This document shows positions 18 through 22,525 of a stretch of 25,921 nt of DNA, piece by piece. The notes under the pieces are model-generated. The model did no database searches. It was not told the origin of the DNA and saw nothing but the letters and a program-made list of their open reading frames with translations. Position 1 is the stretch's first letter, and each line of letters starts with the position of its first letter. The translations under genes were made by a program, and so were the position numbers. Origin of the DNA: Gammaproteobacteria bacterium (GTDB taxonomy: Bacteria > Pseudomonadota > Gammaproteobacteria > UBA9339); NCBI GenBank assembly GCA_030631035.1, contig DAOVLX010000001.1, forward strand, positions 1 through 25,921, given 5' to 3'.

Positions 18-1043
18 ATGAGAAAAGAAATGAACAAAATCGAAAAAATCGAATTTCAGCTTACAAATTCTTGTAATATGAATTGTAGCTTTTGTTTTGG
101 TGGCCATATTAATCGTAATGTGGAAATGTCTCCAGAAATTATTTGTAGAGTGATAAAAGAAACTGTGGAACAGAATAATATAGGACATCCACTATTAAAT
201 TTAAAGAATGTTTGGCTGACTGGGGGTGAGCCACTTTTAGTGGAAAAATCTGTTATAAAGATAATTAGAGAATGTAAATTGTTAGGGATTGATGTTGGAC
301 TAAGTACAAATGCCTTACTATTGAACGAGCATTTGGATGCATTGCTTGATGCTGGTCTTAAGGAGATTAGAATATCCATGGATTCAGTAGACAAGCATAT
401 ATTTGAGAAGGTCAGAGGAAAAAAAGATTCATTTGAGCCTGTAATGCGAAATATAGTGTTGTCTGTAAATGCTGGGCTAAAAACAGTAATTAGAATAACT
501 GTTACCAATGATAATGTGGATGCTATTGAAAACATTGTGGAGTCTCTTGCTAACGTTGGGGTTTCGAAAATTGAATTAAAAGGAGTAATTCCCATTGGGC
601 GTGCGGACTTTAACATGATGCCCAAGTATCGTAAGCTGGAAGAAGCTTTCAAAAAAGGTATTAATATAGTAAATGGCCATCCGGGTGATGTAAAGATTGG
701 CATAATGTGCAATTATTTGCCACGATGCAAAGGGTATTCTGTTGCAAATAACACAGCATGTGTTTGCGGTTATTCTGCTATTTATGTATCAGCTAATGGG
801 GCAATTACTCCTTGCAGCTATTTTCCTAGCGAAAGTAATTATAATATATACAAGAATACCATTACGGAGGCATGGGAGAGCCCGCTTTTTAATAGCATTA
901 GGAAAGATGTTCCAGGGAAGTGTATGAAATGTGATGATTGGGAGCATTGTCGAAATGGGTGTCCGGCTATATTATATAGTGGTAACGCAATAGGGAAATC
1001 ATGTTTTGATTTTATAAATGAAACTAATGATAATTTAATATAA
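18..1043 (+). CDS. Radical SAM enzyme with C-terminal SPASM domain (PqqE/NirJ-like superfamily; substrate unknown)
   Basis: CxxxCxxC motif CNMNCSFC, GGEPLL motif, and SPASM cysteines CVCGYSAIYVSANGAITPC ... CMKCDDWEHCRNGCPA. The true start could be ATG at 30. Confidence 0.92.
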   Translation: MRKEMNKIEKIEFQLTNSCNMNCSFCFGGHINRNVEMSPEIICRVIKETVEQNNIGHPLLNLKNVWLTGGEPLLVEKSVIKIIRECKLLGIDVGLSTNALLLNEHLDALLDAGLKEIRISMDSVDKHIFEKVRGKKDSFEPVMRNIVLSVNAGLKTVIRITVTNDNVDAIENIVESLANVGVSKIELKGVIPIGRADFNMMPKYRKLEEAFKKGINIVNGHPGDVKIGIMCNYLPRCKGYSVANNTACVCGYSAIYVSANGAITPCSYFPSESNYNIYKNTITEAWESPLFNSIRKDVPGKCMKCDDWEHCRNGCPAILYSGNAIGKSCFDFINETNDNLI

Positions 1044-1056
1044 AGGAAATTATGTT

Positions 1057-1845
1057 ATGTATACATATTTTGAAGGCCGAGCATCAGCATACGAAAAATA
1101 TAGGCCAAAATTGCCAGATAATTTCTTTAGATTTTTATCTGATAAACTTCGATTAACTGAAGCCGAAAAATGTAATCGATATATGGATATTGGATGTGGT
1201 ACAGGCCAATTAACAATTCCTCTTAGTAGGTATTTTAATGAAGCAGTAGGCATTGATCCTGCTTTTGATATGGTGCAAGAAGCAAAAAAAGTAGCAAAAA
1301 AGAGTAATTGTGAATCTATTAAATGGGTACAGGGGTATGCAGAAGATATTTCAATAGAAGATTATAAAAATTTTAATTTGGTTACGATAGCAAATGCGTT
1401 TCATTGGATGGATCAACCAATAGTTATTTCAAAAATACTTCGCTTGCTTGATTCTCAAGGTTATTTAGTGCTTGTTCGCTCTTATGCAGATATTACTTCA
1501 AATGCTTCTGATTGGCAGAAAGCTTTGAATGATATTCTTGAATCGTGGGTTGGGGAAGAAAGGAAGGCTACAGTTGGGAGTAAATATGAGCAAATTAATT
1601 GGGTTGAAATGTTAAACGCATTCCCATTTTCTTCTGTGTTGACTCATGAAATTCCGGAAACAAGGATTTGGAGTATTGAGGATCTGTTAGGTTTTTATTT
1701 TACAGTATCATTCTGTTCGGAAGAAAAATTAGGTGAATACGTTGAGGATTACAAAAAAAATGTAGAAAAGACACTACTCAAGATTCATCCTGACAATAAA
1801 TTTGTGCAAAAGCATAATATAACATTAATTATTGCCAAAAAATGA
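1057..1845 (+). CDS. Class I SAM-dependent methyltransferase
   Basis: SAM-binding motif I MDIGCGTGQLT, acidic motif GIDPA, post-II VTIANAFHWMD, N-terminal YEKYRP; AAGGA RBS at 1043-1047. Confidence 0.92.
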   Translation: MYTYFEGRASAYEKYRPKLPDNFFRFLSDKLRLTEAEKCNRYMDIGCGTGQLTIPLSRYFNEAVGIDPAFDMVQEAKKVAKKSNCESIKWVQGYAEDISIEDYKNFNLVTIANAFHWMDQPIVISKILRLLDSQGYLVLVRSYADITSNASDWQKALNDILESWVGEERKATVGSKYEQINWVEMLNAFPFSSVLTHEIPETRIWSIEDLLGFYFTVSFCSEEKLGEYVEDYKKNVEKTLLKIHPDNKFVQKHNITLIIAKK

Positions 1846-2936
1846 AATATAAAAAGATTTTCTTGAATATCTGTTTGCTGGTTATAATTTTTGTTTGTCA
1901 GACTGCTAATGCTAAGCAGTTTATTCTTACTGCTATTTACTCTCCTGATAAACAGCTTCATAGCTGCATGAATGTTTTACAGTCTGTAATTAATCAAGCT
2001 AACAATAATGGACTAAATATTAAGCTTGTTAAATTGATAAATAAAGATGATTCTTCAATAGGAGCATTACAGTTAGCTAAAGAAGCAAAAAATATCCATT
2101 CGGATGCCGTTATTGGCGGTGGTAGTTCGGAACAGATGCTATTAGAGTCAAGGGTATTGAATAGTGCTGATATACCCGTATTTGTACTCACTGCTGAACA
2201 TCCAGACATTTCTGTAGATAAGCCATATGTGGTTACATTGTTGCCGAGTTTAAAAGTATTTTGTAACTCTGCAGCAAATAGGATTATGAATATTTCACCT
2301 AAAGCAAAAAAAATATTAATTGTTAGAAATATATCGATGCAGTATGCAATATACGTTTCTGATGCTGTCACCAAAATTACTAAAAAAGAAAGACCAAATA
2401 CAAAAATTGAATACATTAACATCATTAATGGTTATGGGTTTATTAATAGTTTAGCGGAAAAAATAAAACAAAATCGGCCTGATATGGTATATTTGCCAAT
2501 ATATAATAAACAGATAGCAAGCCTTTTGATCGAATTAACTAAACAGCATCCATTTCCTATCGATATTTTTATTAACGCTGGCCCATCAGTGATAAATGAA
2601 ATGAAATATTATCGTTTAATCTTAAGAGATCACCCTGAAATAAAACTCCATATATTCACGGTTTGGTCAGGAAAGCCCTCTGGCAAATATTCGTTACTAT
2701 ATAAAAGTTTACTTAATAAAAATGAAAGTGCAAGTGATTTAAAAGTGGCTCTTACATTTGATGCGGTAGAATTGCTTATAAATGCGCTCAAAGAAAATTC
2801 TAGTATTCGGGGCATGAATCTGGTTTATTTGGTTAAATTAGAAAAATTTCCCGGAGTAACGGGGGATATTTGGTTTGATAAATTCGGCAATACTGTCAAA
2901 AGAAAAAAGGACAGATTTTTTTATTATGTGATTTAA
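1842..2936 (+). CDS. Periplasmic solute-binding protein, LivJ/LIVBP-like (type 1 PBP fold), with no adjacent ABC permease
   Basis: Signal peptide ending TANA, AVIGGGSS segment, C-terminal FPGVTGDIWFDKFGN typical of the LivJ/K family; ATGA overlap with the methyltransferase stop. Confidence 0.8.
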   Translation: MKYKKIFLNICLLVIIFVCQTANAKQFILTAIYSPDKQLHSCMNVLQSVINQANNNGLNIKLVKLINKDDSSIGALQLAKEAKNIHSDAVIGGGSSEQMLLESRVLNSADIPVFVLTAEHPDISVDKPYVVTLLPSLKVFCNSAANRIMNISPKAKKILIVRNISMQYAIYVSDAVTKITKKERPNTKIEYINIINGYGFINSLAEKIKQNRPDMVYLPIYNKQIASLLIELTKQHPFPIDIFINAGPSVINEMKYYRLILRDHPEIKLHIFTVWSGKPSGKYSLLYKSLLNKNESASDLKVALTFDAVELLINALKENSSIRGMNLVYLVKLEKFPGVTGDIWFDKFGNTVKRKKDRFFYYVI

Positions 2937-2948
2937 AAAGGCTTATAT

Positions 2949-4964
2949 ATGAAATCAGATACAAATGGTATTAGTAAAATTAATCTGTATAAGATAATAT
3001 TATGGCCAGTAATTATTTTAGTGATGTCATTTCTGTTTGTATTTGCTATAGCCTCCCATTTTCATAGCATACATAGTGCAGAAAAATTGCAGCACGATCT
3101 CAAGCAGGCCCTGTTTGATGCAGAAAGTAGTTTTGCTGATGAGGTGGTTTTGCAGGAATATCCGGCAATTCAAATGAGGATTAATCGTATAATACTTGAT
3201 GTACAAACAAGGTATGAAGGCGCTAATATTTGCATTAGTTTGCAGCCAGAATATGCAAAGTCAAACCTTAATAAACCTATTACTCAATGTAGTGATAGGG
3301 CAGGCATAGATGATTTTTTACAATCTTCTAATAATTTTGTTAGGCAGATTAGGGTTTCAGGCGTAAATATCGCCAAGGTTGTTTATAGATCAAGTTTACA
3401 GGTAAATATATATAGCTTTTTTTCGCCAGAAGTAATGTTTGCAACTTTTGTGGCTATGTTTATTACTTTTGTTGCATTTTATTTTTTGATAAAAAACATC
3501 AGAAAAAACATCATCATGCCTTTTCAAGAAACTGTAGAATATAATGCAAAATCAGTAGCTTTTTCAGAATTAGCCGGACAGGTTGCGCACGATATACGTT
3601 CACCAGCTGCTGCTGTTTTAATGTTGGCTAAAGAATCTGTAGGATTGCCGGAAGAGCAGCGCCTATCTCTTAGAGATGCGGCTAATAGAATTCATAACAT
3701 AGCCAATCATTTGCTAAGTCAATATGGTGGCGATTCAAATGACGAAATTCGTGCTGGGAAAATATTAATTCCACCTTCAGTTCTGTCTGTTTTTACAGAA
3801 AAAAAGATGCAACACAAAGAGTTGCCAGTATCTTTTTTATGCAATATTGCTGAATCAGCTAGCTTCGCTTATGTTAATATTAATAAAACTGATTTTGAAA
3901 GAATGATCTCCAATTTGATAAGTAATGCTTTTGAGGCGTTAATTTTTAATCAGGGAGAAGTTGAAGTCCGATTATTTATAGAGCCTGGAGTTAATAATGT
4001 AGTTATTCAAATTATAGACAATGGTAGGGGGATGTCGCAAGAATTTATTGATGAATTTCTTAATAAGGATAAAGTAATAAGTCAAAAACAAAATGGGCAC
4101 GGGTTAGGGCTGACATACACCAAGTCAGTGTTGAAAGAAAGCACAGGAGTACTTGATGTCTTTTCGCAAATAAATCAAGGAACTACTATAGAATTAAGAT
4201 TTAAAGCAGAAGAGCCGCCCATTTGGATTGCAACAGAGATCAATTTTCGATCAGATGATATTATAATTATTCTTGATGATGATTGCTCAGTTCATGGGGC
4301 ATGGGATCGCAGATTTCAAACTATTCTTGCTACTCATAAAAATAGTAAAATTTTGCATTTTAATACTGCTGAAGAATGTCTCGTGCAGATTCAATCTTTT
4401 TCTCAATCTGATAAAAGCCGAGTATTATTGTTGGCTGATTATGAGCTAATCAATCAAGATAAAAATGGATTAGATGTAATTGAACTAATTGATATAAATC
4501 GCTCTTTTTTAGTGACTAGTCATTATGAAAATATGGAAGTTATTAAAAGAGCTATTTTGTGTAATGCATATGTGTTGCCAAAAATTTTGGCTTCTGATGT
4601 TAAATTGATTTTAAATGAAGAGAATAGCTTCGATGAAAATAAAGATTTTGATTTAATTATTGTTGATGACGCTAAAGAATTTTCTGAGGTAATATCGTAT
4701 TTATTTTCTTCAAAAGATAAGAAACTGCGAGTCTATCACAATCCTTATGAGTTGCTTAGTAGCTTGCTTAGTTGTGACAAGCAAATTAAAATATGTTTTG
4801 ACTATGACTTGGAATGTCCAGTGAATGGTGTTGAACTTGCAGAAGTACTATGGAGAAAAGGATATAATAACTTATATTTAGCAACAGGTTACCAAACTCA
4901 GAAAATGAAATTACCAGCGTATTTAAGAGTATTGAATAATAAAATGGACCTGCTTAATCTTTAG
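2949..4964 (+). CDS. Membrane-bound hybrid sensor histidine kinase with two C-terminal receiver domains
   Basis: Two hydrophobic TM segments flanking a ~125-aa periplasmic domain; H-box VAHDIRSP, N-box MISNLISNA, G1 IIDNGRGM, G2 GHGLGL; REC1 (ILDDD...LADYEL...LVTS...PK) and REC2 (IVDDA...CFDYDL...LATG...NK). Confidence 0.92.
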   Translation: MKSDTNGISKINLYKIILWPVIILVMSFLFVFAIASHFHSIHSAEKLQHDLKQALFDAESSFADEVVLQEYPAIQMRINRIILDVQTRYEGANICISLQPEYAKSNLNKPITQCSDRAGIDDFLQSSNNFVRQIRVSGVNIAKVVYRSSLQVNIYSFFSPEVMFATFVAMFITFVAFYFLIKNIRKNIIMPFQETVEYNAKSVAFSELAGQVAHDIRSPAAAVLMLAKESVGLPEEQRLSLRDAANRIHNIANHLLSQYGGDSNDEIRAGKILIPPSVLSVFTEKKMQHKELPVSFLCNIAESASFAYVNINKTDFERMISNLISNAFEALIFNQGEVEVRLFIEPGVNNVVIQIIDNGRGMSQEFIDEFLNKDKVISQKQNGHGLGLTYTKSVLKESTGVLDVFSQINQGTTIELRFKAEEPPIWIATEINFRSDDIIIILDDDCSVHGAWDRRFQTILATHKNSKILHFNTAEECLVQIQSFSQSDKSRVLLLADYELINQDKNGLDVIELIDINRSFLVTSHYENMEVIKRAILCNAYVLPKILASDVKLILNEENSFDENKDFDLIIVDDAKEFSEVISYLFSSKDKKLRVYHNPYELLSSLLSCDKQIKICFDYDLECPVNGVELAEVLWRKGYNNLYLATGYQTQKMKLPAYLRVLNNKMDLLNL

Positions 4965-5227: not shown

Positions 5228-5884
5228 TCAATAAGAAACCTTTTTTACACATTCTCTATATGCTCCTAGCATGACATCTCCATCTCTTAGTGATAACTTA
5301 CAGGGTGTGGTATCAAGAGACACAAGCACTATGTCTATTTTTTCGATGTGGAATCCATATTTTAATGTAATATTATTAGTTTTAGCCAGATATACTAACA
5401 ATATTTCTCCATCTTTAAAAGTTTCTGTTTGTTCAAAGGTTACAATATCTTTTACTTCAAATTTTGGTGAAAATTCAGTTCCTGTAATATAAATAGCTAT
5501 AGCTTTTTTGGGGTAAGGGGTGGTTGTTAGGATAAAATTGTTAGTGGTTAGCGTATCTTCTTTGTTGGTGGAGTAATAAAGTTTTAATTGGTCTAGATAG
5601 TAGACTGGTATTTTATACGTTTTTACTGTAGTATTTTCTTCATGAATTTCTCCTTTTCCCGTTGCAAGCCATTCTTCATTCACATTTAAGTGTTCGGCTA
5701 TTCTTTTTACATGTTTAGATGATTTAGTGTCGCTATTTAAAAGATAGTGCATGCCAGATGGTGACAAACCAAGTTTGTTCGCCATGTGCGATTGTTTTAC
5801 CCCTAGGGTATCAAGGACGTATCTTAATCTTTTTGATATGTTGTTTAGTTTCCTAATATCATCTGCATTTTCTTGGGTTGCCAT
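5228..5884 (-). CDS. Phage CI/XRE-type repressor with degenerate S24 domain (LvrR-like position)
   Basis: N-terminal Cro/CI HTH (RLRYVLDTLGVKQSHMANKLGLSPSGMHYLL...LNVNEEWLATGKGE); C-terminal S24-like fold with GTEF in place of GDSM; divergent from the LvrA-like and csrA genes. Confidence 0.85.
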   Translation of the reverse strand: MATQENADDIRKLNNISKRLRYVLDTLGVKQSHMANKLGLSPSGMHYLLNSDTKSSKHVKRIAEHLNVNEEWLATGKGEIHEENTTVKTYKIPVYYLDQLKLYYSTNKEDTLTTNNFILTTTPYPKKAIAIYITGTEFSPKFEVKDIVTFEQTETFKDGEILLVYLAKTNNITLKYGFHIEKIDIVLVSLDTTPCKLSLRDGDVMLGAYRECVKKVSY

Positions 5885-6173
5885 TTTAATATTTTCCTAG
5901 CTATGTTTTAAAATTAAATCCAGTTAATCAAGCATTAAAAAATACAAAATACCACATATTGCTATTTTTTAAAAATAAATTTCATAAATGACTAGCCTTA
6001 CGCACACCTTTTGTGTGGGCTGGTAAGAAATAATATGTACTTTTTAAAGGGTTGCTTTATGTGCCGATCCATTGCAAAACATTAAAATCAGAAGCTTACA
6101 GAATAATATTTCTATTTTAGGGCGCGTTTATATCGAATTTGAAGATAATCCGGGGGTTAGCCAAAGAAAAATC

Positions 6174-6201
6174 TTGACACTGAATTTTTATTCAGTAAAC
6201 T
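6174..6201 (+). promoter_or_regulatory. Sigma70-type promoter for the rightward operon
   Basis: Perfect -35 TTGACA (6174-6179), 16-nt spacer, -10 TAAACT (6196-6201). Confidence 0.65.
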
Positions 6202-6238
6202 GCGCAAATACACCTCATGTTTTCAGTAATTTTTACTG
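6179..6238. promoter_or_regulatory. Candidate repressor operators (palindromes)
   Basis: ACTGAAT-TTTT-ATTCAGT (6179-6196) fills the promoter spacer; CAGTAA-TTT-TTACTG (6224-6238); TTCAGTAA directly repeated at 6191 and 6222. Confidence 0.5.
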
Positions 6239-6393
6239 GTGAAGATGTTTAATAAAGGGTCAAATTTGTTGAAATTTGAGAAAAACGAGCTAGCGGAGCG
6301 ATAACTTGCAGTGGCTCTGATTATGAACAAGGCAGCATAAAGGGGCTGGTAAGACGGCAATCTCAACTAGCCTAACATAAAAATGTGAAATAG

Positions 6394-6449
6394 AGGAAAT
6401 GATTTTTCACTAATAATATTAGCATATTATTTTGAGTGCGTCATTTCCT
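6394..6449 (+). other. Long nested stem-loop in the 5' leader
   Basis: AGGAAATGA (6394-6402)/TCATTTCCT (6441-6449), CACT/AGTG, and AATAATAT (6412-6419)/ATATTATT (6424-6431) around the loop TAGC. Confidence 0.6.
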
Positions 6450-6630
6450 TATCGGGGAAAAGGATAATGGCATGCTTAAAAAACAAATATGTCGGAATTG
6501 CGCATATATTTGTCTCTATTCTAAGCTTAGGCGAGCTATACATTATATGTGCTATCATATCCCTATTATCGTTATCGTTTTGGTCCCTCCTATCTAATAC
6601 ATTTACATTTATTCATATAGGAGGGTTACT

Positions 6631-7785
6631 ATGACCATGCCTACTTGCATCAATAATCCTGGCAGCGAGCTTCTATTGGTATTACGTCGATGGCAAGTAG
6701 ATATCTGTGATAACAACAAGTGCGCGGCAGCTGTTTTGTCATTTTTAATCTACTTTCATGATGTAAAAAGAGAAATGATCAGGAAGAATAAACAGGCAAA
6801 CGATTTGGCTGAATTACACGGGGATGAGCGCACCCAGGATGAGACCATTTATCAGTTTCACACCATAGAAGAGATCACTGAGCGCATTTTAGGATTATAT
6901 GGTAGGACAGCCATCAATGAGGGAATTAAGCTGCTCGAGAAGAAGGAAATCATATCTATCCACAGAAATCCCAATCCAAAATATAGCTTTGATAAAACCA
7001 GATACTTTTTATTGCATCCTGCTGTGTGTAACGAGTGGCTAGAAGAAAAATACAATAAAAACAATAGGTTCCAAAAGCGGCACATCGATGAGCCGGAAAA
7101 CGGTCATCGATCAACCGGAAATAGCACATCGATGAACCGGAAAACGGTTATCGATGAACCAGAAGTAGCAGATCGACAACCGCAAACCTGCGCACCGTCA
7201 ACCGGAAATAGTACAGCTATAACAAAGAATACATACAAAGAACAGATAGATAAAAAAATAGGCTCTGATAATAATTTTTCTGTGGATAACTCGGACGAAG
7301 CTACAGAAGCTTCTCCTGAGGTCAGAGCGGTTATCGATTATCTTGTTGAACATGGTATGCCTAGAAAGTTATTGACTCGTACAGATGATATATGCGCGAT
7401 TCAGACGATTTTAAAAGCAGGGGCAACACAGACAGATTTTGCTAATGCATTAGTCAAAGCGTATGTGGCTAAGGGAGAGGAAAAATTTGGGCTTTATTAT
7501 TTGCTTAAAATTATCAGTAATTTCTTAGAAGAGAGGAAACGTAGGCAAATATCGAAGCAGAAGCGGCGTGAGCTTCCTGAGGAGCATAGTGGTTCATTAT
7601 CAGTTAAAGATACTGTTCAACGCCCTAAGTTAGAAGATTTTACAGGTCGCACGCAAGAGCGCCCAAAAGTAGATCAGGCAACGATAGATGCATCATTGCG
7701 GGATATCAAATCAATTTTACAGAAAACCATAAAAAATAATTACGGAGGAAAAGATGATGTTGATTTTAACAAGAAGAGCAGGTGA
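6631..7785 (+). CDS. lvrA: LvrA-like winged-helix protein; probable phage-type replication initiator
   Basis: AGGAGG RBS; N-terminal domain ([21 protein letters not shown]...[16 protein letters not shown]) resembles Legionella vir-region LvrA as recalled; lies between a divergent repressor and csrA as in lvr modules; internal iteron-like repeats. Confidence 0.7.
7084..7214. repeat. Six degenerate 22-bp tandem repeats (iteron-like), consensus ATCGATgAACCGGAAA(A/T)(C/A)G...
   Basis: ATCGAT at 7084, 7106, 7128, 7150 and ATCGAC at 7172 (exact 22-bp spacing); sixth degenerate copy at ~7193 (TCAACCGGAAATAG). Confidence 0.9.
7281..7289 (-). promoter_or_regulatory. Perfect DnaA box (TTATCCACA on the minus strand)
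   Basis: TGTGGATAA at 7281-7289, just after an A-rich strip following the 22-bp repeats; a one-mismatch box CTATCCACA lies at 6956-6964. Confidence 0.6.
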
Positions 7786-7969
7786 GACTGTCATGATTGG
7801 CAATAATGCTGAAATCACAGTAACAGTTTTGGGTATTAGAGGTAATCAGGTGCGTTTAGGAGTGCATGCACCAGCTGAGATTCCTGTGCATCGGGAGGAG
7901 ATATACGAACGTATCCAAACAGAGAACAACACAAACGGTAGAAAATATAAATTTGAAGATGATGAATAA
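7754..7969 (+). CDS. csrA: CsrA/RsmA family RNA-binding translational regulator (element-borne paralog, LvrC-like)
   Basis: [15 protein letters not shown]...VRLGVHAP...[11 protein letters not shown]; GGAGG RBS; start at 7754 or 7757; overlaps the upstream gene by ~30 nt. Confidence 0.97.
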
Positions 7970-8168
7970 TACCCAGAGAAATAAATCTAGTTGTGATTTA
8001 AGAGAAATTTATTTTGCTCTTAGACATGGGCGGTTGTGTGGCGCTGTTAGTGGAATATTAACAGCGTTGTGCAACTTTGTTCCACATAACTGCGTTGAGG
8101 GAAACTGCAGCTATTCTATGGCGCCATATTTCTCAAGAGGTATTTGGTTTTATGCTATTAACAATTAA
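7959..8168 (+). CDS. Possible small Cys-rich hypothetical protein (69 aa)
   Basis: The ATG overlaps the csrA 3' end and the stop lies just before the traT RBS, so the ORF fills the gap exactly; no recognisable family and a weak RBS. Confidence 0.3.
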
Positions 8169-8181
8169 AAAGGGGAAAAAC

Positions 8182-8928
8182 GTGAAATTTTTAATCAAAC
8201 CAATAATCAAGCTAGTACTAATAAGTACATTACTGTCATTAATGGGCTGTGCGGCGGTTAACACTGCGGTAAGCAAACACGATTTAGATGTACAAACTAA
8301 AATGAGCGCATCAATATTTTTGGATCCAGTAGCTCCTAGTCAAAAGGTGGCTTATGTTGGAGTTCATAACACCTCTGGTCAGTCATTGGATGTCACCTCA
8401 GCAATTAAGTCAGATATAGAGGCAGAAGGGTATCGAATAACAGATGACCCCACTAAGGCCCATTATTTGCTGCAGGTTAACGTATTAAGGATAGGGAAGG
8501 CAGATAAGAGGGATTCCTCTAAATCTTTAGCACATGGCTATGGTGGGGCTATAACTGGTATGGCAATAGGCACAGGAACTGCAATAGCAGCAGGAGGAGA
8601 CACTGATACAGCTATAGCTGGAGGCCTTATTGGCGGTGCAGCAGGAAGTATTGCTGATGCTTTAGTTAAGGACCAAGTCTATACCATGGTTACTGATGTT
8701 CAGATATCAGAGCGTGCAGCCAAGGGACAGAAATTGCATAAGCATTCAACTTCAGTATTAAAGCAGGGTACTAGTGGTCAAGAGGTAATAACTGGAGGAG
8801 GTGATGCCCAGTGGATGCGATATAGAACCCGGGTAGTAAGCACAGCAGAGAAGGTAAATTTGAAGTTTGCTGATGCAAAACCTGTGTTAGAAAAAGAGCT
8901 GGCAAAATCAATCGCAGGTATTTTGTAA
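8182..8928 (+). CDS. traT: TraT-family surface exclusion/complement resistance lipoprotein
   Basis: GTG start after an AGGGG RBS (the track's 8077 start is probably too long); lipobox LMGC, then AAVNTAVSKHDLDVQTKMSASIFLDPV, a glycine-zipper region and RYRTRVVSTAEKVNLKF. Confidence 0.9.
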   Translation: MKFLIKPIIKLVLISTLLSLMGCAAVNTAVSKHDLDVQTKMSASIFLDPVAPSQKVAYVGVHNTSGQSLDVTSAIKSDIEAEGYRITDDPTKAHYLLQVNVLRIGKADKRDSSKSLAHGYGGAITGMAIGTGTAIAAGGDTDTAIAGGLIGGAAGSIADALVKDQVYTMVTDVQISERAAKGQKLHKHSTSVLKQGTSGQEVITGGGDAQWMRYRTRVVSTAEKVNLKFADAKPVLEKELAKSIAGIL

Positions 8929-8984: not shown

Positions 8985-9419
8985 ATGAAGGCAAAGCAGA
9001 TGATATACATGTGGTGGTTTTTGTTATTGTTGTTGCCTGTGTTAGTTTTTGGTGCTGATGTTAGGGTAGGGCGTTATTTAAGTACAACCAGTGCCCCAAA
9101 GGCATCGCAGCAAAACCCACTAGAGCAGATATTTTCTTTAACCTTTCCGAATTCAATTAACACTATTGGTCAGGCCATGGATTATATTTTAAACAATACT
9201 AGCTATAAGTTAATGCCTAACGAATATCGTAGCGAAGATATAGCATCGTTGTTGGGTCAGCAATTACCACTTTCAGATAGACAGATAGGGCCTATTAGTG
9301 TTGATCAGGCTTTGCATGTATTAGCTGGCAGCTCTTATCAGATGCTGATTGATCCTAAACATCGTTATATCTCATTTATTCTAAAACCGACATTTAACAA
9401 TTTATATCCTATCAGGTAA
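8985..9419 (+). CDS. pilL: PilL-like ICE protein (PFGI-1 class)
   Basis: Signal peptide; RVGRYL...QQNPLEQI...TIGQAMDYILNNTSYKL...RQIGPISVDQALHVLAG pattern. Confidence 0.8.
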   Translation: MKAKQMIYMWWFLLLLLPVLVFGADVRVGRYLSTTSAPKASQQNPLEQIFSLTFPNSINTIGQAMDYILNNTSYKLMPNEYRSEDIASLLGQQLPLSDRQIGPISVDQALHVLAGSSYQMLIDPKHRYISFILKPTFNNLYPIR

Positions 9420-9425
9420 CGCACT

Positions 9426-10322
9426 ATGGAAAATAATCAGATACAAGAAACACAAGAAATAGAAAAAGACAAAAAACCGTCAAAATTAAAGCTAGCTGTT
9501 ACTTTTGTTAAAGCTTGGTTTAATAGGATTTGGAGTTTTTCCAAAAGAGTCGTTAGAAGAATTATGACGCAAATTTGGGGTTTTTGTAAAAAACGACCTA
9601 TTTATAGCGGTATTATCATAACAATTGTGATTCTAGCTGTTGTTCTATGTTGTTTATTTGTTCCCATTTTTCATGGACGGAATGACTTACACAATACCTT
9701 ATGGGATAGCGCCAGTGTGACTAATAAACAGGATGTTGCGTCGTTAAAAATTGCAAAAGAGATGCAGCAAAAAGAACATAATCAACAGTTGACTAAAGAG
9801 CTAGAACAGAAACTTAATGCAATTCAGCAAGAGGTTAATCAGTCTCATCAACTATCAACCCAGAGTGTAGAGCAGCTGGAGCAACAGATTACAGCCTTGA
9901 CGCAAGATATAGCTGATATCAAGCAAAATGCGAAGGAGGCAAAGGATAGTGCCAGGCAAAGCGTTCAAACAACACAGCAGCATTATCACGAGTCTAAAAA
10001 ACAGGTAGCAAAGGTTGTTTCTCAATTACAAGAGATCCACAAACAGCTTGAGCCCCAGAGATATTTACCACCAAGTATTTTGCCATTTGAAGTTGTTGGG
10101 TTGGATTTTTGGAATGGAAAAGCAATGATCACTGTTGCAGTTAAAGATGTTACAGGATCTGTGCATTATCGCTTGATGGGGCAGGGTATGCAGTTTGCCT
10201 GTCATAGTGTTAAGTTGAAAGATCCTGGTTGCACTAGTTGGTGGCTAGATAAAATTTCTCCAGACTCAAGCACAATTATTTTTAAGAACTCAACCGGTAA
10301 AAAAGTAAGAGTAGAGCTCTAA
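9426..10322 (+). CDS. ICE membrane-anchored coiled-coil protein (conserved gene after pilL)
   Basis: One TM segment, a long Gln/Glu-rich coiled coil, C-terminal LPFEVVGLDFWNG beta-domain; position after pilL. Confidence 0.7.
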   Translation: MENNQIQETQEIEKDKKPSKLKLAVTFVKAWFNRIWSFSKRVVRRIMTQIWGFCKKRPIYSGIIITIVILAVVLCCLFVPIFHGRNDLHNTLWDSASVTNKQDVASLKIAKEMQQKEHNQQLTKELEQKLNAIQQEVNQSHQLSTQSVEQLEQQITALTQDIADIKQNAKEAKDSARQSVQTTQQHYHESKKQVAKVVSQLQEIHKQLEPQRYLPPSILPFEVVGLDFWNGKAMITVAVKDVTGSVHYRLMGQGMQFACHSVKLKDPGCTSWWLDKISPDSSTIIFKNSTGKKVRVEL

Positions 10323-10558
10323 TGATAGATAAAATCAAGAGAACAATAGGTTTTGCAATGATGTTGTTACTGACAACTGCTGTTACGGGTTGTGCCTCAA
10401 TAAAGAAGTCTCATACAGAATTTACAGCATTACAGCTTGCCTGTGTCAGCTCTCCAGTTTTATATACCAATTTACAGAAACCTGAATTACAGAGGGTTTA
10501 TTTGCTGTCAAATGGGAATGATTGCACTCAGTTTTACAGGGCGGATTATTATGTATAA
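10322..10558 (+). CDS. Small lipoprotein, hypothetical
   Basis: Lipobox VTGC after a signal peptide; start and stop overlap both neighbours. Confidence 0.7.
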   Translation: MIDKIKRTIGFAMMLLLTTAVTGCASIKKSHTEFTALQLACVSSPVLYTNLQKPELQRVYLLSNGNDCTQFYRADYYV

Positions 10559-11366
10559 AAGGTTGGCACCACTTATAGTATTGATTTTTATCTGTTCTGG
10601 CTGTTTTGCATCTGAAAAAGAAGACGTACAAAAGACAGAGTATACCAAGATGCCTTTGTTAAATGTGATAGGAGGCAATAAAAAAGACGATTTTACTCAG
10701 TTTCAGAATTTAACTGCAAAACAGAAGCACACTATGGCAAAGGAGTGGGGACTTAGTCCAGAGCAATATACCAAATATCTCTATTATATAAATTATACTC
10801 CAGATGCTACAACAGTTGATAAAAATACTACTAGTCCATTATTAGTTTTAGCGATGCATGCTCAAAATAAAGCTCAATATGATGGTTATATAAAACAAGC
10901 TGTTATTATCGAACATAATGAGATGGCACGTTTTTTGCAGGTGCAGCATGATTTTACCAAAATGGTGCATCAGCTTTATCCAAAGCAATATCCGATAACG
11001 GCATCATGGATGAAAACCAGTGAACTACAAGCTGGAGATGTAGTACAGCTTTTTTGTAATACCCATAATCAGACTTGTAGTAATGTATTAGGCGCTATTT
11101 TGCCGAAAATTCGTAAAGTATCTGGTGCCAGAATTGATATATTTGCAGTTAATAAGCCAACTGCTACACAAATAGTAGAATTTGGTAAAAAGAATAAGAT
11201 CAGCAAGAAAGAGGTGCAGAGTAAGAAAGTTACCCTAAATTTTGGGGATAAGGCGTTTAATTTATTAGAAGGAGAGACCCATAAAAAATTGTCATTACCA
11301 TTTATTGTAGTAAGACGTAATGGTAAGGAGGTAGCAGTTAATTTAGGGGATAGACATGGCGCCTAA
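10551..11366 (+). CDS. ICE protein, TIGR03759 (PFL_4693)-like
   Basis: Start reassigned to ATG 10551 (signal peptide MYKRLAPLIVLIFICSGCFA); AKEWGLSPEQYTKY...PLLVLAM...QLYP pattern. Confidence 0.75.
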   Translation: MYKRLAPLIVLIFICSGCFASEKEDVQKTEYTKMPLLNVIGGNKKDDFTQFQNLTAKQKHTMAKEWGLSPEQYTKYLYYINYTPDATTVDKNTTSPLLVLAMHAQNKAQYDGYIKQAVIIEHNEMARFLQVQHDFTKMVHQLYPKQYPITASWMKTSELQAGDVVQLFCNTHNQTCSNVLGAILPKIRKVSGARIDIFAVNKPTATQIVEFGKKNKISKKEVQSKKVTLNFGDKAFNLLEGETHKKLSLPFIVVRRNGKEVAVNLGDRHGA

Positions 11367-11853
11367 TATAGCAACTATCACCTGTTTACTTGTTGTTAGT
11401 GGCCCTGTTTTTGCTTTTACTAAAATTATAGCAACTGTGGGTCCAACTACCGACATAAAACCATATATGCAAGTAATTCAAGGTAGTCAGTCACAACGAT
11501 CCAAAAGTTTGGATCCTAAAAAATCATATAGATTTAGTTATAAGACAGACTCCAAAGAGTTAACACCTGGCATAGTAAAAACTCGGAAAATCAATAATCC
11601 AATGCTAAAAGAACCAATTTTTATAGTTGGAGACGATGATCTTTCTATGAAATGGCTGGATAAATATGCGAGTAAACTAAAAACAATCAAGGCGATTGGA
11701 GTCATTGTAAATATAAAAGATAGTAATGATTATCATAAGATTACTAATAAATATGGCCTTCCTCTATTATCTGTCAACGGTGATGGTATAGCCAAAAGTC
11801 TTGGTATTAGGCATTACCCGGTATTAATTGGCCAGCATGTAATTGAGCAATGA
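11356..11853 (+). CDS. ICE protein, TIGR03765 (PFL_4695)-like
   Basis: PIFIVGDDDLSMKWL...GVIVNI...GDGIAKSLGIRHYPVLI...IEQ pattern. Confidence 0.85.
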   Translation: MAPNIATITCLLVVSGPVFAFTKIIATVGPTTDIKPYMQVIQGSQSQRSKSLDPKKSYRFSYKTDSKELTPGIVKTRKINNPMLKEPIFIVGDDDLSMKWLDKYASKLKTIKAIGVIVNIKDSNDYHKITNKYGLPLLSVNGDGIAKSLGIRHYPVLIGQHVIEQ

Positions 11854-12179
11854 AGATGAAATTTATAAAGAAGACCATACTAATTTTATTAATCGGAGTA
11901 AGCATGAATGCATTTGCTGATCCTTTTCAAGAGAATATTGAATTAGCACAAATCAGTAATGTATTAAATGCGGTTTATCCTCTTATTGCTGAGGCAGAAA
12001 AGGAAGCTGATCCTAATGCCAGAGTTAAGTTTCACTATGATTGGCTGCAACAGGATATTCAGGGTATACAAAGTGGAATAGCGCAAAAGATTAATGCAGC
12101 CAAGATTGAACCAAGAGTAGTTAAACCGCTGAAATCTTCTTTTATTACTCAACAGAATGTTAATAGGGGAGGAGAGTAA
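11850..12179 (+). CDS. RAQPRD-family ICE protein (TIGR01690-like)
   Basis: Signal peptide; VKFHYDWLQQDIQGIQSGIAQKINAAKIEPR corresponds to the family C-terminal motif. Confidence 0.8.
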   Translation: MKMKFIKKTILILLIGVSMNAFADPFQENIELAQISNVLNAVYPLIAEAEKEADPNARVKFHYDWLQQDIQGIQSGIAQKINAAKIEPRVVKPLKSSFITQQNVNRGGE

Positions 12180-12415
12180 TGTCGCTATCTGCTTTTGAAG
12201 ATGGTTCAGGACTTAGTGCTGTTTGGTTTAATCATTGGGTAGTTGGGCTAACTGGAACGCTGGTCATTGTTACTGCAGCAGCTTTAGTGACGCTTTTGGC
12301 GCATCGCTTAGAGATTGTAGAGGACGCAAGTCGTATGTGGATAGTTGGCTATATTCTGTTTGTAATCATGATGGTGTTTGTTTTTCTTGGGTTTTTAAAT
12401 AATTTTTGGAGATGA
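12179..12415 (+). CDS. Small ICE membrane protein, TIGR03758-like
   Basis: AFEDGSGLS N-terminus, two TM helices, position after the RAQPRD gene. Confidence 0.7.
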   Translation: MSLSAFEDGSGLSAVWFNHWVVGLTGTLVIVTAAALVTLLAHRLEIVEDASRMWIVGYILFVIMMVFVFLGFLNNFWR

Positions 12416-12422
12416 GAAGTAA

Positions 12423-12806
12423 ATGAAATGCATTAAAAAAATAAATCAGCTTTTTTTAAATATAAGTTTGCGGCCATATATCTGGCTTACTTTATTGCTC
12501 AATAGCACCCTGGCTTTTGCCAGTGATAGCCCATTTGGGAATATGAATATAGATCCATCTGATTTAGAAAAGACAGCAGGGGACACTACTAGCTCGACCT
12601 TGCAATATATCATTTTAGGTATAGGGGTGTTTTTGTGTGCAGTATGCGCTATGAATCTTATAAAAATAGCTTCTCGCTCTGCCGAAGAGAAGCAGGAGCA
12701 TGGCAATAGTTTGATTGGGATTCTAGTGGTAATTTTTTGTGGTTTTCTTGGGTTAGCCTTGATTGCTATAGGCTGGAGCGGTGCGAGTAATACTATTAGT
12801 ACATAA
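12423..12806 (+). CDS. ICE membrane protein, TIGR03745-like (candidate pilin, VirB2-like topology)
   Basis: Signal-like leader ending LAFA plus two hydrophobic helices; syntenic position. Confidence 0.65.
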   Translation: MKCIKKINQLFLNISLRPYIWLTLLLNSTLAFASDSPFGNMNIDPSDLEKTAGDTTSSTLQYIILGIGVFLCAVCAMNLIKIASRSAEEKQEHGNSLIGILVVIFCGFLGLALIAIGWSGASNTIST

Positions 12807-12861
12807 TCATCAATTTTTAATAAAGAACAAATTGAGTATTTGTTAATTAGAGGGGTTCATC

Positions 12862-13203
12862 ATGACAAAAAAGATATCAGGTAATTCTAAAGTAGTTAAT
12901 ATAGGAAAAACTCTTGATTTGATTATGAGTGGCCCTAATTACAGACAGAAAATAGCTTGTTTTTTAGGCGATAATTTTCCAGGAGTATATTTTACCCCAA
13001 GAGAAGCAGCCTGCATGATGCGATTACTTCAAGGGAAGAGTATGCGTGGTATCGCTGAGGAACTAAATTTATCACCTAGGACAGTAGAGTTTTATACTGA
13101 AAATATGAGAGGAAAATTGAGTTGCAAGTCAAAATTTGAATTAATAGATTTTGTTAAAAAAAGTGATTTTTTGCAGAATTACAAATCTAAGGATACAGAT
13201 TAG
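12862..13203 (+). CDS. LuxR/GerE-type HTH transcriptional regulator without a receiver domain
   Basis: FTPREAACMMRLLQGKSMRGIAEELNLSPRTVEFYTENMRGKLSCKSKFELI; AGAGGGG RBS. Confidence 0.92.
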   Translation: MTKKISGNSKVVNIGKTLDLIMSGPNYRQKIACFLGDNFPGVYFTPREAACMMRLLQGKSMRGIAEELNLSPRTVEFYTENMRGKLSCKSKFELIDFVKKSDFLQNYKSKDTD

Positions 13204-13225
13204 TATTTGGAGAGTGAATTAGAGT

Positions 13226-13579
13226 ATGGCAGAACTAGATCTTTTGGTTAATAGATTAAACTTTGACCCAGTTATTTTTAAAGGCTGCAGTGAAAGAGAG
13301 CTCTATTTCACTATTATTGGAGTTTCTTTGCCAATTTGTGCGATTTTTGGACTTTTTGGCTATTTAGCCTGGAGTAATATTTTTTATGGGATTTTGATAG
13401 GGGCAGTTTTAAGTTTGGCAGTAGTATTTTTTGCCTTAGGGATTGTGGAGAAAATTAAGCGGGATAAGGAGCCAGGTTATGTGCAGCAGTTAATAACATT
13501 TAAACTGGAACAAAAAGGTTTTATCAAAACGCCAATAATTAGACGATCTGGGATCTGGATGATTGGGAGATATTTATGA
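13226..13579 (+). CDS. ICE conjugative transfer region protein, TIGR03750-like
   Basis: NRLNFDPVIFKGCSEREL, two TM helices, KRDKEPGYVQQ. Confidence 0.85.
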   Translation: MAELDLLVNRLNFDPVIFKGCSERELYFTIIGVSLPICAIFGLFGYLAWSNIFYGILIGAVLSLAVVFFALGIVEKIKRDKEPGYVQQLITFKLEQKGFIKTPIIRRSGIWMIGRYL

Positions 13580-14232
13580 GCCGATTTAAACATGCATTAG
13601 GCAATGCTCAATTAGCTATTATTTGTCTAGCATTTGCTCTAGTTTTATCTTTTGTATTGAATGTTTTTTTAGGGGTATTTTTGTTTAGAGTCCCAAATGA
13701 TATTACGGTTAATGTGCCACCGGCAATTCCAGCGTCCGGATTAAAAATCAAACCTGGAGAAATCAATTCTGCCAGGGTTTATGCGTTTACCTATTATATC
13801 TGGCAGGCATTACAAACCTGGCCTGTAAATGGAAAACATGACTATGTAGATAATATTAAGAAATTTGCGCCCTATTTGACGATGTCATTTCAGAACACCC
13901 TGAAAGAGGAGGGCAAAAAAATGGATGAACAGGGATTTTTATATAAACACCAGCAGATTACTTTTGGTGTGCTGGGTAGCTCTTTTTCTCCAAAAGAGGT
14001 GCGATATATTGGTAATGGAACCTGGCTGGTGCATCTTCGCATGCGTACTATTAATGCAGTGGCGCCACCTGAAGAAAATAAGAGCTTTAATGAATCCCAT
14101 ATTGCCATGGATGCAGAGACTAGTTTTGTGTTTAAAGTGGTGCGGTATGACTATTCTCCAGACAAGAACCACTGGGGTTTGGCAATTGCAGGGTATGCGG
14201 CACCACCACAAGTTAAAAAGGCGTACAAATAG
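13576..14232 (+). CDS. ICE protein, TIGR03746 (PFL_4703/DUF2895)-like
   Basis: One TM then PNDITVNVPP...VYAFTYYIWQALQTWP...DY...APYLT pattern. Confidence 0.85.
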   Translation: MSRFKHALGNAQLAIICLAFALVLSFVLNVFLGVFLFRVPNDITVNVPPAIPASGLKIKPGEINSARVYAFTYYIWQALQTWPVNGKHDYVDNIKKFAPYLTMSFQNTLKEEGKKMDEQGFLYKHQQITFGVLGSSFSPKEVRYIGNGTWLVHLRMRTINAVAPPEENKSFNESHIAMDAETSFVFKVVRYDYSPDKNHWGLAIAGYAAPPQVKKAYK

Positions 14233-14243
14233 AGAGGCATATT

Positions 14244-15092
14244 TTGAAGAAAATAAGCAAAATAATTATAGGGTTTTTGCTATTTGGTGTAATAGCTGGA
14301 GTCCTCGCTGCACCAAATATAGAGGATCAGGCAAATTGGCAACATCTGGTATGGAAGCATATACCACTTACGATTAATCTACCTTTTAATAAAGAAAAAA
14401 TCATTCATTTTCCCCATTCTGTGTCCTTGGGGATTCCATCTGATATCAATGGTGATCTTGTAGTACAAAATAATGCTGGGTGGTTGTATTTGATGGCAAA
14501 GGCCGAATTTGCCAAAACAAGGGTTGAGGTAAAAGATAATGAAACTGGAGATATTATTTTATTAAATGTAGCTACAAATAATGCGGCAGATGATATTAAT
14601 ATTGATATAGTCTATCAGCCAGAAGATAGCACAAAGCCAAAGAGTGCAAACAAACTAAAAGGTGATCTATCTTACGTAATGTTAACCCGCTATGCCTATC
14701 AGCAGCTTTATGCACCCAAAAGATTACAAAAGAACCCTTATAACATTCAATTAATTACTTCCTACGCAAAAGATAATAACGTTGATGTTAAAAATTGGTT
14801 TTCTAATTTGTTTATGGATAACAGTACAATAAACATACCCTGGGCAGAATGGCATGGAGGTGATTATTATATAACAGCAGTTTTAATAAGGAATCAACTT
14901 CCAAAAAAAATCAATTTAAATCATAAATTACCACTAATTTGTGGCCGTTCCAACCATCTCTGGCAGGCCGTGACATTTTTTCCAGATTGGAGGCTTGATA
15001 AAGCTGGCAGTTTGCATGATACAGCCGTGGCATTTTTAGTTTCTCGAAAACCTTTTGATGAAGCAGTTAAGATTTGTAAGGGGATGAGTTAA
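14244..15092 (+). CDS. ICE protein, TIGR03749 (PFL_4704/DUF3438)-like periplasmic T4SS component
   Basis: TTG start with a GAGG RBS; signal peptide; WKHIPLTINL...GWLYLMA...LTRYAYQQLYAPKRL pattern. Confidence 0.85.
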   Translation: MKKISKIIIGFLLFGVIAGVLAAPNIEDQANWQHLVWKHIPLTINLPFNKEKIIHFPHSVSLGIPSDINGDLVVQNNAGWLYLMAKAEFAKTRVEVKDNETGDIILLNVATNNAADDINIDIVYQPEDSTKPKSANKLKGDLSYVMLTRYAYQQLYAPKRLQKNPYNIQLITSYAKDNNVDVKNWFSNLFMDNSTINIPWAEWHGGDYYITAVLIRNQLPKKINLNHKLPLICGRSNHLWQAVTFFPDWRLDKAGSLHDTAVAFLVSRKPFDEAVKICKGMS

Positions 15093-16444
15093 TGGCAAAT
15101 AAATTCCAGGAAAAGCTTGTTAGATTTGTTAAAACCCCAGTGGGCATGCTTATCTGTGTTATGGCAGTGTCTTTTTTAATTTTGATAGTTATTGTTAGAT
15201 TTTTTTTGGGCACAGGGCATCATAATAAAGCCGCTCAGGATATGTTGACTATGAACACACCCGAGGTACAAAGAAATGTGCGTTATACAACCCAGGAAAC
15301 ATTAAGTACCCTGACAGGCGAAACTGATAATCTAGAAAAGGGATTAACTGATGTGCAGAAGCAATTTGCTGATCTGAAGAACTCACAAGGTCAGGCTAGT
15401 CAAGCGATGCAGCAAAAAATGCAACAGGAGCTGCAGGATTTACAGCAGCAGAATAAAAAATTCCAACAGGCGCTTGCTCATGAGTTAAAACAAAAAACAA
15501 ATGAAGAAACTGAGTCTATGGTTAATAATGTGTCTGATAAATATGATAGTGCGGGAGAGACTTCTTCAACCAATCAGACGGTTTGGATTAATGATATGAA
15601 GCAACCGGTTGTTACTAATAATCCTCAAGATAATAGTAATCCAGATTCTCTTTTGCATCCACAAACAGCTTCAAGCACTTTTGCTGGTAATAAAGATAAA
15701 CCACCAGCTATACCTAAATATACTATCCCGGCAAATACCTGGTTTACAGGTGTTACTCCAGAGCAGCCATTGGTTGGGGTCATTCCTACTGATGGCAAAG
15801 TAATGAATCCAGAGACAGTGATGTTTATGGTAGGGGAGAAAAATATAGCTGCCAAAAATTGGCATTTACCTCCAGCGTTAAAGGGTATCCAGGGCAATGC
15901 ACTATGTCAGGGAGTATTTAATTTTAAGCATTCGGCAGTGCGTTGTGATATTACCAGTTTAACCTTTATCTTTAAGGACGGAAGAATAGCAACTGAAAAT
16001 GCAGACAAAGGTAATGCCTTTGGGCAATTAACTACCTTGTATGGTAATCCCTATATTCCAGGAGAATATAAAGGTAATGCTCTTTTGGGAGCTGTTGGCA
16101 CAGGATTTTTTTCTGGCATGCAGGGTTTTGGTAATGCTTTTGCCTCTTCACAGGTTGATACAGAGACCGATACAGATACGATCACAACTAGCTTTAAAAA
16201 TGCTAATGATTATGCGATAGGGCAGGGAGTTGGCTCTACTGGTGAAGCGCTAAACCAATGGTGGTTACAGATTATGAAATCAACCACTAACTATGTATTT
16301 GTTCCAAATTGGGATCCTAAAACCCAAAAGCTATTAATTCTAAATGCAAAAATTACCCAGGAGATTCCTATTGATTATGATCCTTCAAGCAGGAGAGTAG
16401 AGTATGACCAAGATAATTCGTATTCTGATAGTAGCCTTGATTAG
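15092..16444 (+). CDS. ICE protein, TIGR03752 (PFL_4705)-like; TraB/VirB10-like core component
   Basis: N-terminal TM, coiled coil, Pro/Asn-rich linker, C-terminal beta-domain (YTIPANT...PLVGVIP...SLTFIFKDGRI). Confidence 0.8.
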   Translation: MANKFQEKLVRFVKTPVGMLICVMAVSFLILIVIVRFFLGTGHHNKAAQDMLTMNTPEVQRNVRYTTQETLSTLTGETDNLEKGLTDVQKQFADLKNSQGQASQAMQQKMQQELQDLQQQNKKFQQALAHELKQKTNEETESMVNNVSDKYDSAGETSSTNQTVWINDMKQPVVTNNPQDNSNPDSLLHPQTASSTFAGNKDKPPAIPKYTIPANTWFTGVTPEQPLVGVIPTDGKVMNPETVMFMVGEKNIAAKNWHLPPALKGIQGNALCQGVFNFKHSAVRCDITSLTFIFKDGRIATENADKGNAFGQLTTLYGNPYIPGEYKGNALLGAVGTGFFSGMQGFGNAFASSQVDTETDTDTITTSFKNANDYAIGQGVGSTGEALNQWWLQIMKSTTNYVFVPNWDPKTQKLLILNAKITQEIPIDYDPSSRRVEYDQDNSYSDSSLD

Positions 16445-16835: not shown

Positions 16836-16840
16836 TATCT

Positions 16841-22524: not shown

Positions 22525-22525
22525 T

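Follow-up and report, generated by a model that had tools for sequence, protein, structure and literature searches.

We have analyzed a stretch of 25,921 nucleotides (the window) that is the entire contig DAOVLX010000001.1 of a 1.78-Mb metagenome-assembled genome (MAG) of a gammaproteobacterium (UBA9339, assembly GCA_030631035.1) originating from a cold-seep metagenome; the assembler contigs that hold this sequence are all of one run. It carries part of a conjugative element, in which a divergent cI-type repressor gene, a gene coding for a 384-aa protein (P0001), a CsrA-family gene and a TraT gene precede a genomic-island-type (GI-type) type IV secretion system (T4SS) cluster (Table 1). An earlier note on this DNA, made from its letters alone, had placed an iteron-type replication origin inside the P0001 gene, which it called LvrA-like. 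Our computational analysis leads in the same direction: P0001 is probably a replication initiator of the lambda-O/DnaD-like kind, and its own gene would contain the origin of vegetative replication (oriV) of the conjugative element. This placement is supported by the matches of the protein to initiator families in PHROG, by the position of an iteron array, an AT-rich strip and a DnaA box over a disordered linker of the protein, by the arrays of 21–22 bp period in its homologues, and by the DnaB- and DnaC-type genes found downstream of some of them.

The five cores described before at an exact 22-bp spacing are found at 7084, 7106, 7128 and 7150 (ATCGAT) and at 7172 (ATCGAC), and the sixth, degenerate unit follows again after 22 bp with the core ACCGTC at 7194. 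The units are of two alternating types, which produces a higher order of 44 bp, also claimed in the earlier note and detected by Tandem Repeats Finder (TRF) as a period of 44 over 7080–7215 (3.1 copies, score 158), above the score of 108 given to the period of 22 (7083–7164); a repeat search gave the same families. The 19-nt iteron motif has two exact matches, both within the array (none in 100 shuffles), and outside the array no copy with up to three mismatches was found in the 25.9 kb. As 22 is not a multiple of 3, the units are distributed over the three reading frames (codon phases 2, 0, 1, 2, 0 for the starts of consecutive units), so that the repetition is at the level of the DNA, as had been proposed. 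A peptide repeat is ruled out for the window by this period.

The A-rich strip that follows has a GC content of 0.217 at 7220–7279 versus 0.47–0.52 over the array, in agreement with what had been counted by hand, and is a candidate unwinding element. The perfect DnaA box was confirmed (TTATCCACA, minus strand, 7281–7289) and is the only perfect one in the window; the expectation from the base composition is about 0.35 per window and about 0.005 per 400 bp. The one-mismatch box noticed upstream of the array (6956–6964) is also present, being one of 13 in the window, a number not above chance (9.1 expected). Each of these two DnaA-box-like sites forms the core of one arm of a perfect 12-nt inverted repeat (TATCCACAGAAA and its complement, 6957–6968 and 7277–7288); separated by 308 nt, the arms flank the iteron array and the AT-rich strip. 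By our own estimate, about 0.01 non-overlapping inverted pairs of 12 nt would be expected in 450 nt, and looping mediated by DnaA is one possible role of this arrangement. The isolated 11-mer at 7328–7338 reported earlier is identical to 7145–7155. When one base is added, this junction between units has three matches in the window versus 0.1 expected, and the only further copy is the one beyond the AT-rich strip.

Table 1. Features of the 25,921-nt window (positions counted from its first letter).
Feature	Coordinates	Strand	Basis or remarks
Radical SAM/SPASM enzyme, methyltransferase, periplasmic binding protein and hybrid histidine kinase genes	18–4964		Cargo-like operon left of the repressor
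Divergent cI-type repressor gene, LvrR/PrpA position	5228–5884	-	Pfam HTH_19, Peptidase_S24, Phage_CI_repr (helix-turn-helix and S24-like domain)
Repressor-initiator control region, 746 nt	5885–6630		Contains a 20-nt direct repeat
Putative initiator gene, P0001, 384 aa	6631–7785	+	O-like/DnaD-like winged-helix initiator family, uncharacterised
N-terminal winged-helix domain (residues 1–149), presumed iteron-binding	6631–7077	+	AlphaFold2, predicted local distance difference test (pLDDT) >95
One-mismatch DnaA box (6956–6964) overlapping the left inverted-repeat arm (6957–6968)	6956–6968	+	Box scan and repeat search
Six iterons, 22-bp period, an A-tract in each	7083–7214		Unit starts 7083, 7105, 7127, 7149, 7171, 7193
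AT-rich strip, GC 0.22	7221–7280		Two tandem 13-mers, 7222–7234 and 7235–7247
Perfect DnaA box (7281–7289) overlapping the right inverted-repeat arm (7277–7288)	7277–7289	-	Box scan and repeat search
C-terminal helical domain (residues 228–314), presumed replisome-recruiting	7312–7572	+	AlphaFold2 pLDDT >94
Isolated iteron-junction copy beyond the AT-rich strip	7327–7338	+	11-mer plus one base
CsrA-family gene, LvrC position	7754–7969	+	Pfam CsrA E 7.6e-24; NCBIfam csrA
TraT surface-exclusion lipoprotein gene, start of the transfer genes	8077–8928	+	Pfam TraT E 4.4e-77
Genomic-island-type (PFGI-1/ICEclc class) T4SS cluster	8985–24109	+	TIGR03748, 03759, 03765, 01690, 03750, 03746, 03749, 03752, 03751, 03744 (TraC), 03757, 03756, 03755
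Single-stranded-DNA-binding protein gene	25112–25501	+	NCBIfam ssb E 3.5e-25

In the AlphaFold2 model of P0001, built with 114 sequences, the N-terminal and C-terminal domains are joined by a linker (residues 150–227) that is predicted to be disordered, and it is this linker that holds the array (residues 150–195), the AT-rich strip (197–217) and the DnaA box (217–220). Modelled by itself, the N-terminal domain reached a pLDDT of 94 and a predicted template modelling score (pTM) of 0.84. P0001 matched PHROG 678, 'replication initiation O-like' (E 2.4e-5), and its N-terminal domain the PHROG 'DnaD-like helicase loader' (E 3.7e-4). A Foldseek comparison with the viral models of BFVD retrieved phage replication proteins (DnaD, 'replication protein' and a gpO N-terminal protein, the gpO match being weak, E 1e-3). 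As to the C-terminal domain, its features look like those of DnaB_2 (DnaD-type) and Phg_2220_C, which are leads only.

The family of P0001 is large, with 836 representative clusters at 50% identity in an exhaustive phmmer search (E <= 1e-3). Its conservation is concentrated at residues 5–145 of P0001 and the C-termini are variable, including Phg_2220_C in two members and a DnaT domain in one. Among 114 members, 36 matched DnaD-like, 31 O-like and 11 'replication initiation protein' PHROGs, with a best E value of 1.5e-37. All the named PHROG families among the 25 listed are related to replication, while no annotation exists for the family with most matches (39 members) and for several more. Pfam and NCBIfam gave no family for P0001, for its halves or for several relatives (the N-terminal domain and the whole protein were negative in Pfam even at E values up to 10). 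Searches of the PDB sequences with profiles produced no match either, nor did tblastn of P0001 against named phages and plasmids. These comparisons support the existence of a large family of predicted initiators that is not modelled in Pfam or NCBIfam and is tied to known replication initiators.

Genomes, metagenomes and viral contigs yielded 118 loci with homologues, anchored at the end of the N-terminal domain by tblastn, which were reduced to 86 non-redundant loci. Within about 300 nt past the anchor, 55 of the 86 have a TRF array of about 21–22 bp period (21 in 47 loci and 22 in six). The density of arrays after the anchor was 2.05 per kb versus 0.027 per kb in 447 kb of flanking DNA, i.e., 76-fold higher. 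Most of the 32 TRF-negative loci had their top autocorrelation at lag 21, 22, 42 or 43, and degenerate units could be recognized by eye in L002, L128 and L129. Higher orders of 42–44 bp are found also in L008, L028 and L039. The sequences of the units vary widely among homologues, with a common plan in which a short inverted repeat surrounds an A-tract and is accompanied by CACCGT or ATCGAT, and the nearest relatives (L007, L008 and L128) have units of the ATCGAT ... CCGAAA type of the window. The similarity of the units tracked the identity of the N-terminal domains weakly (Mantel r 0.14, reached in 16 of 2000 permutations). The codon phase of the A-tract core was 0 in 14 loci, 2 in nine, 1 in one and mixed in 14.

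Disorder is predicted for the linker, the protein sequence of which is poorly conserved, and insertions are tolerated in such regions, so the array might be thought a by-product of slippage or duplication with no function at the DNA level. Against this, most homologues have at this position independent arrays that agree in period but are unrelated in sequence, with the enrichment given above, the period corresponds to two helical turns and not to codons, and a junction copy and an AT-rich strip accompany the array. We regard this explanation as very improbable.

Directly past the arrays most loci contain an AT-rich 12-mer of the type AGAGAYTWC in two to five tandem copies (2.2 per kb versus 0.04 per kb elsewhere), the counterpart of which in the window is the pair of 13-mers at 7222–7247. 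This 12-bp repeat, of the type ACAGAGATTACT (e.g., L003:4536-4562 and L064:4597-4632), is kept across initiators that are 40–50% identical and encodes ITEIT-like peptides.

The neighborhood of the homologues also points to replication. Among the genes immediately downstream of 57 of them, eight code for a DnaB-type helicase, eight for an IstB/DnaC-like loader and three for a Toprim protein. In the MAG of a Neisseriaceae (L003) a cI-like repressor gene is followed by an initiator gene with four 22-bp units and by a DnaC gene (E 6.4e-34). The closest full-length relatives, those having the C-terminal domain in common with P0001, are all within the same module as in the window. The locus of P0010 (L128) has a divergent S24 repressor, the initiator, CsrA, VirB11, TrbC, VirB3 and VirB4, and the contig of P0002 has the same order with a P-type T4SS. 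At the locus of P0005 (L129) the S24 repressor and the initiator are followed by an IstB/DnaC-like protein and then by F-type TraL/E/K/B/V/C, while in L046, L050, L063 and L081 the initiator, one gene and CsrA follow each other, with TraT also in two of them. The same module thus appears before F-, P- and GI-type T4SSs, indicating that it is portable between T4SS types. The gene at the LvrB position (L129:5112-5810, L046:5007-5696, L063:3715-4419 and L081:782-1480) is about 230 aa long, and in L129 it has an IstB_IS21 domain, like a DnaC-like loader. From these similarities, the LvrB position would hold a helicase loader in at least some relatives, and the lvr-type module may hold a pair similar to lambda O/P. 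We infer from the conserved gene order that the origin may be controlled by the repressor/CsrA switch, as had been suggested.

Tandem phased repeats with small DNA-binding proteins are also typical of centromere-like partition sites, where the protein would be a ParR/TubR-type adaptor with a winged helix, and a TubR chain was among the weak fold matches of P0001. However, no partition NTPase gene was found nearby, the neighbors in the family are helicases and loaders, and the named PHROG matches (among the 25 listed) are to replication families, which makes a partition site a highly unlikely explanation.

Several findings weigh against P0001 being an initiator with an origin inside its gene. 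At the sequence level it does not match Pfam Phage_rep_O or Rep_3, and its PDB fold matches are weak, mostly to generic winged-helix regulators. In the window the genes that follow are CsrA and TraT, with no adjacent helicase or helicase-loader gene. The period of 21 found in most homologues is a multiple of 3 and, from the period alone, a peptide repeat would be possible there. The 12-mer is in one reading frame in 44 of 46 loci, so that it may be partly a peptide motif, constrained as both DNA and peptide. In the 86 homologue loci no perfect DnaA box was found outside the window, the one-mismatch boxes had a density of 0.44 versus 0.27 per kb, and the nearest relative (L128) has no box at the aligned position. 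Of the earlier expectation that homologues would carry phased repeats together with a DnaA box, the repeats were found in most loci but the boxes were not enriched. DnaA boxes were for this reason rejected as an origin feature of the whole family. An R6K/RK2-like dependence on DnaA, as put forward before, would thus be specific to the window. Finally, Wee et al. (2013) described the lvrRABC module of Legionella as regulatory, with an influence on excision (PMC3864950).

Taken together, the regulatory role given to lvrRABC in the literature, the regulator-like folds, the setting between repressor and CsrA and the lack of an adjacent helicase or loader gene are what would be expected if P0001 were a former phage initiator that is now a transcription factor. 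Its intragenic sites would then act in roadblock or autoregulation of the CsrA/T4SS operon, or in excision, and no replication would start there. A mere operator does not need the full origin grammar of array, AT-rich strip, junction copy and DnaA box, though, and the two-domain architecture of an initiator is intact in P0001. Besides, genes for DnaB and DnaC are associated with the family, and in L129 the LvrB position is taken by a DnaC-like loader. We consider a purely regulatory role unlikely, and initiator plus intragenic origin remains the reading that we prefer.

Bacteriophage lambda provides the closest layout. Its origin consists of four 18-bp iterons and a 38-bp AT-rich segment within gene O, and O bound to ori is needed for theta initiation, with DnaB loaded at the AT-rich region (PMC3349717). 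Like in ori-lambda, the putative origin of the window lies in the part of the initiator gene coding for the linker that joins an origin-binding domain at the N-terminus to a recruiting domain at the C-terminus (both presumed here), phased iterons are followed by an AT-rich segment, and the gene is downstream of a divergent cI-type repressor. The likeness to the lambda O/P pair extends to the 'O-like' PHROG match and to the relatives L003 and L129, in which a helicase loader follows the initiator. Unlike lambda, the window has six units, strictly spaced at 22 bp with a higher order of 44 bp, and in addition a perfect DnaA box and a copy of the junction at the flank. It also differs in having no P/DnaC-like gene and no Phage_rep_O match, and in that the module heads a T4SS operon with CsrA and not phage late genes.

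The origins of iteron plasmids (R6K, RK2, pSC101, F, P1) combine iterons about 22 bp long with a DnaA box and an AT-rich region for unwinding, and their Rep proteins work with the host DnaA and DnaB-DnaC. The window has iterons of that length, an AT-rich region and a DnaA box, and P0001 presumably cooperates with the same host proteins. The differences are that the plasmid origins are outside the rep gene, that Rep_3 proteins have two winged-helix domains in tandem, while the AlphaFold2 model of P0001 has a single one and its sequence no Rep_3 match, and that the DnaA box is not conserved in the homologues. In the RepA_N initiators of Gram-positive plasmids (e.g., pSK41 RepA) the iteron origin is in the middle of repA, flanked by the regions for a DNA-binding domain at the N-terminus and a host-specific one at the C-terminus. 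The longest fold alignments of the N-terminal domain of P0001 included 4pt7 and 4pql (labelled in the PDB as 'initiator' and 'N-terminal domain of DNA binding protein'; template modelling score 0.41–0.49, E about 0.02), which we take to be RepA_N proteins. This fold match is weak, the sequences are not similar, and the plasmids have a different host range. Two further reports (PMC7433901, PMC7145576) describe RepA and oriV of Salmonella genomic island 1 (SGI1) and RepA of the Vibrio phage-inducible chromosomal island-like element (PLE), chromosomal or mobilisable elements with an initiator and iterons that replicate after induction. Their initiator families differ from that of P0001 and they have no T4SS of their own. 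The origins of SGI1 and PLE are not known to lie inside the initiator gene. The kind of origin proposed here is known (lambda-type, intragenic), and what is undescribed is the initiator family and its setting before conjugation genes.

The proposed origin would function as follows. Relief from the divergent cI-type repressor would let transcription of the operon run through the origin, and the initiator would be made. Its N-terminal winged-helix domain would bind the six A-tract-bearing iterons, wrapping and bending the DNA; being two helical turns apart, all the sites are on one face of the helix. The adjacent strip with the AT-rich 13-mers would then open, and the C-terminal helical domain, perhaps with host DnaA at the flanking box, would recruit the host DnaB helicase. 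The help of DnaA is suggested by the element having no loader gene of its own, and it is the weakest step of the mechanism because the box is absent from the relatives. Theta replication would follow, and CsrA and the genes of the T4SS would be expressed as part of this transcription unit. Binding, unwinding, use of DnaA, timing and replication itself we infer.

The element that carries this module may be an integrating one or a plasmid. The earlier note spoke of an element of the type of integrative and conjugative elements (ICEs), and the presence of a GI-type T4SS agrees with that, but no integrase gene, tRNA gene or att site was found in the 25.9-kb window or in a longer, 29.3-kb version of the contig, both ends of which fall within the element. 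The element could be a conjugative plasmid or a phage-plasmid and this origin its vegetative replicon, which would not change the reading of the origin. Besides the missing integration functions, this would fit with the positional counterpart of the gene on a 136-kb plasmid of Legionella lytica (see below) and with the 35 homologues located on contigs classed as viral. On the other side, the NCBIfam models that identify the T4SS were defined on integrating elements, the same lvrA-like/lvrC/traT layout is found on two chromosomal islands of Legionella, LdrGI-c and LdrGI-d (PMC3864950), and no partition genes were seen across the 29 kb, none of which is decisive. We consider a plasmid or phage-plasmid less likely than not.

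The T4SS is complete, with a TraC ATPase that scores 783 bits, and downstream of the initiator the gene order is CsrA, TraT and then PilL2. The CsrA gene starts 32 nt upstream of the initiator stop in a different frame (overlap 7754–7785), which suggests that the expression of the initiator and of this RNA-binding regulator is coupled. Adjoining the start of the repressor gene there is an AT-rich 20-nt direct repeat (5900–5919 and 5961–5980, 90% identity, 61 nt apart), the copies of which are candidate operators of the divergent control region. A scan for sigma-70 promoters and terminators over 5700–8200 gave sites no more frequent than chance. The only extra content of the longer contig is an ATP-grasp gene on the left, before the cargo-like operon, and together they may form a unit for peptide modification and sensing. 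A small HTH (helix-turn-helix) gene of the LuxR/GerE type without receiver domain lies inside the T4SS operon (12862–13203), and on the contig of P0002 a GerE gene is located just 5' of the initiator. Another contig of the same MAG (G000:C197:5769-6014, L130) has a 789-aa open frame with weak similarity to a TraD-type coupling protein (E 8e-10), which may be a missing part of the same conjugative element. Protein and profile searches found no homologue of P0001 in 21 other genomes of the same family or order, indicating that the module is foreign to this lineage.

The module has the gene order and the position of lvrRABC of Legionella, in which PrpA/LvrR, LvrA, LvrB and LvrC (CsrA) precede Lvh, F-, P- or GI-type T4SSs. 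The layout of the window is that of LdrGI-c and LdrGI-d, on which traT accompanies weak homologues of lvrA and lvrC (PMC3864950). By contrast, plasmid pLPP of L. pneumophila Paris was discarded as a full lvr module, with only csrA and traT present. The designation LvrA-like is borne out by the position between a cI-type repressor and CsrA before a T4SS, but homology to the protein at the lvr position in L. lytica was not detected (303 aa; hhalign probability with the P0001 family 2.4%). The gene of the latter (L123) is at 10828–11739 of the 136-kb plasmid NZ_CP071529.1. Its product matches phage replication-initiator PHROGs (phrog_428, E 3.7e-17), and 11 members of the P0001 family match phrog_428 too. 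Many homologues of this protein in Legionella are named 'replication protein' at NCBI. The linker of the L. lytica gene has no clean tandem array, only scattered GAAA-type sites and an AT-rich stretch. Judged from these sequence comparisons, the name LvrA-like is right by position and broad functional class and not by family. In the literature searched, papers mentioning LvrA assign no function to it, and no replication module was identified on the Legionella genomic islands by Wee et al. (2013) (PMC3864950). The earlier note was not aware of lvr-type modules described as replicons, which agrees with the publications searched, but the automatic names at NCBI already say 'replication protein'.

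We propose tentatively, and it could well be wrong, that the lvr-type module before F-, P- and GI-type conjugation operons is a lambdoid cassette for immunity plus replication. It would comprise a cI-like repressor, an O-like initiator with its own origin, sometimes a DnaC-like loader at the LvrB position, and CsrA. On de-repression the element would become an episome with theta replication, and transfer would be switched on by the same transcript. If true, this cassette would supply the 'missing replication module' of the Legionella-type genomic-island ICEs, would explain the episomal forms reported for Legionella islands and would tie copy number to transfer. If the gene at the LvrA position is an initiator with its own origin, these elements and their relatives with other T4SSs would have a phage-like theta replicon under the control of a repressor. 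The origin could then be read directly from the gene in each member of the family, an aid to the annotation of the replicons of prophages and ICEs.

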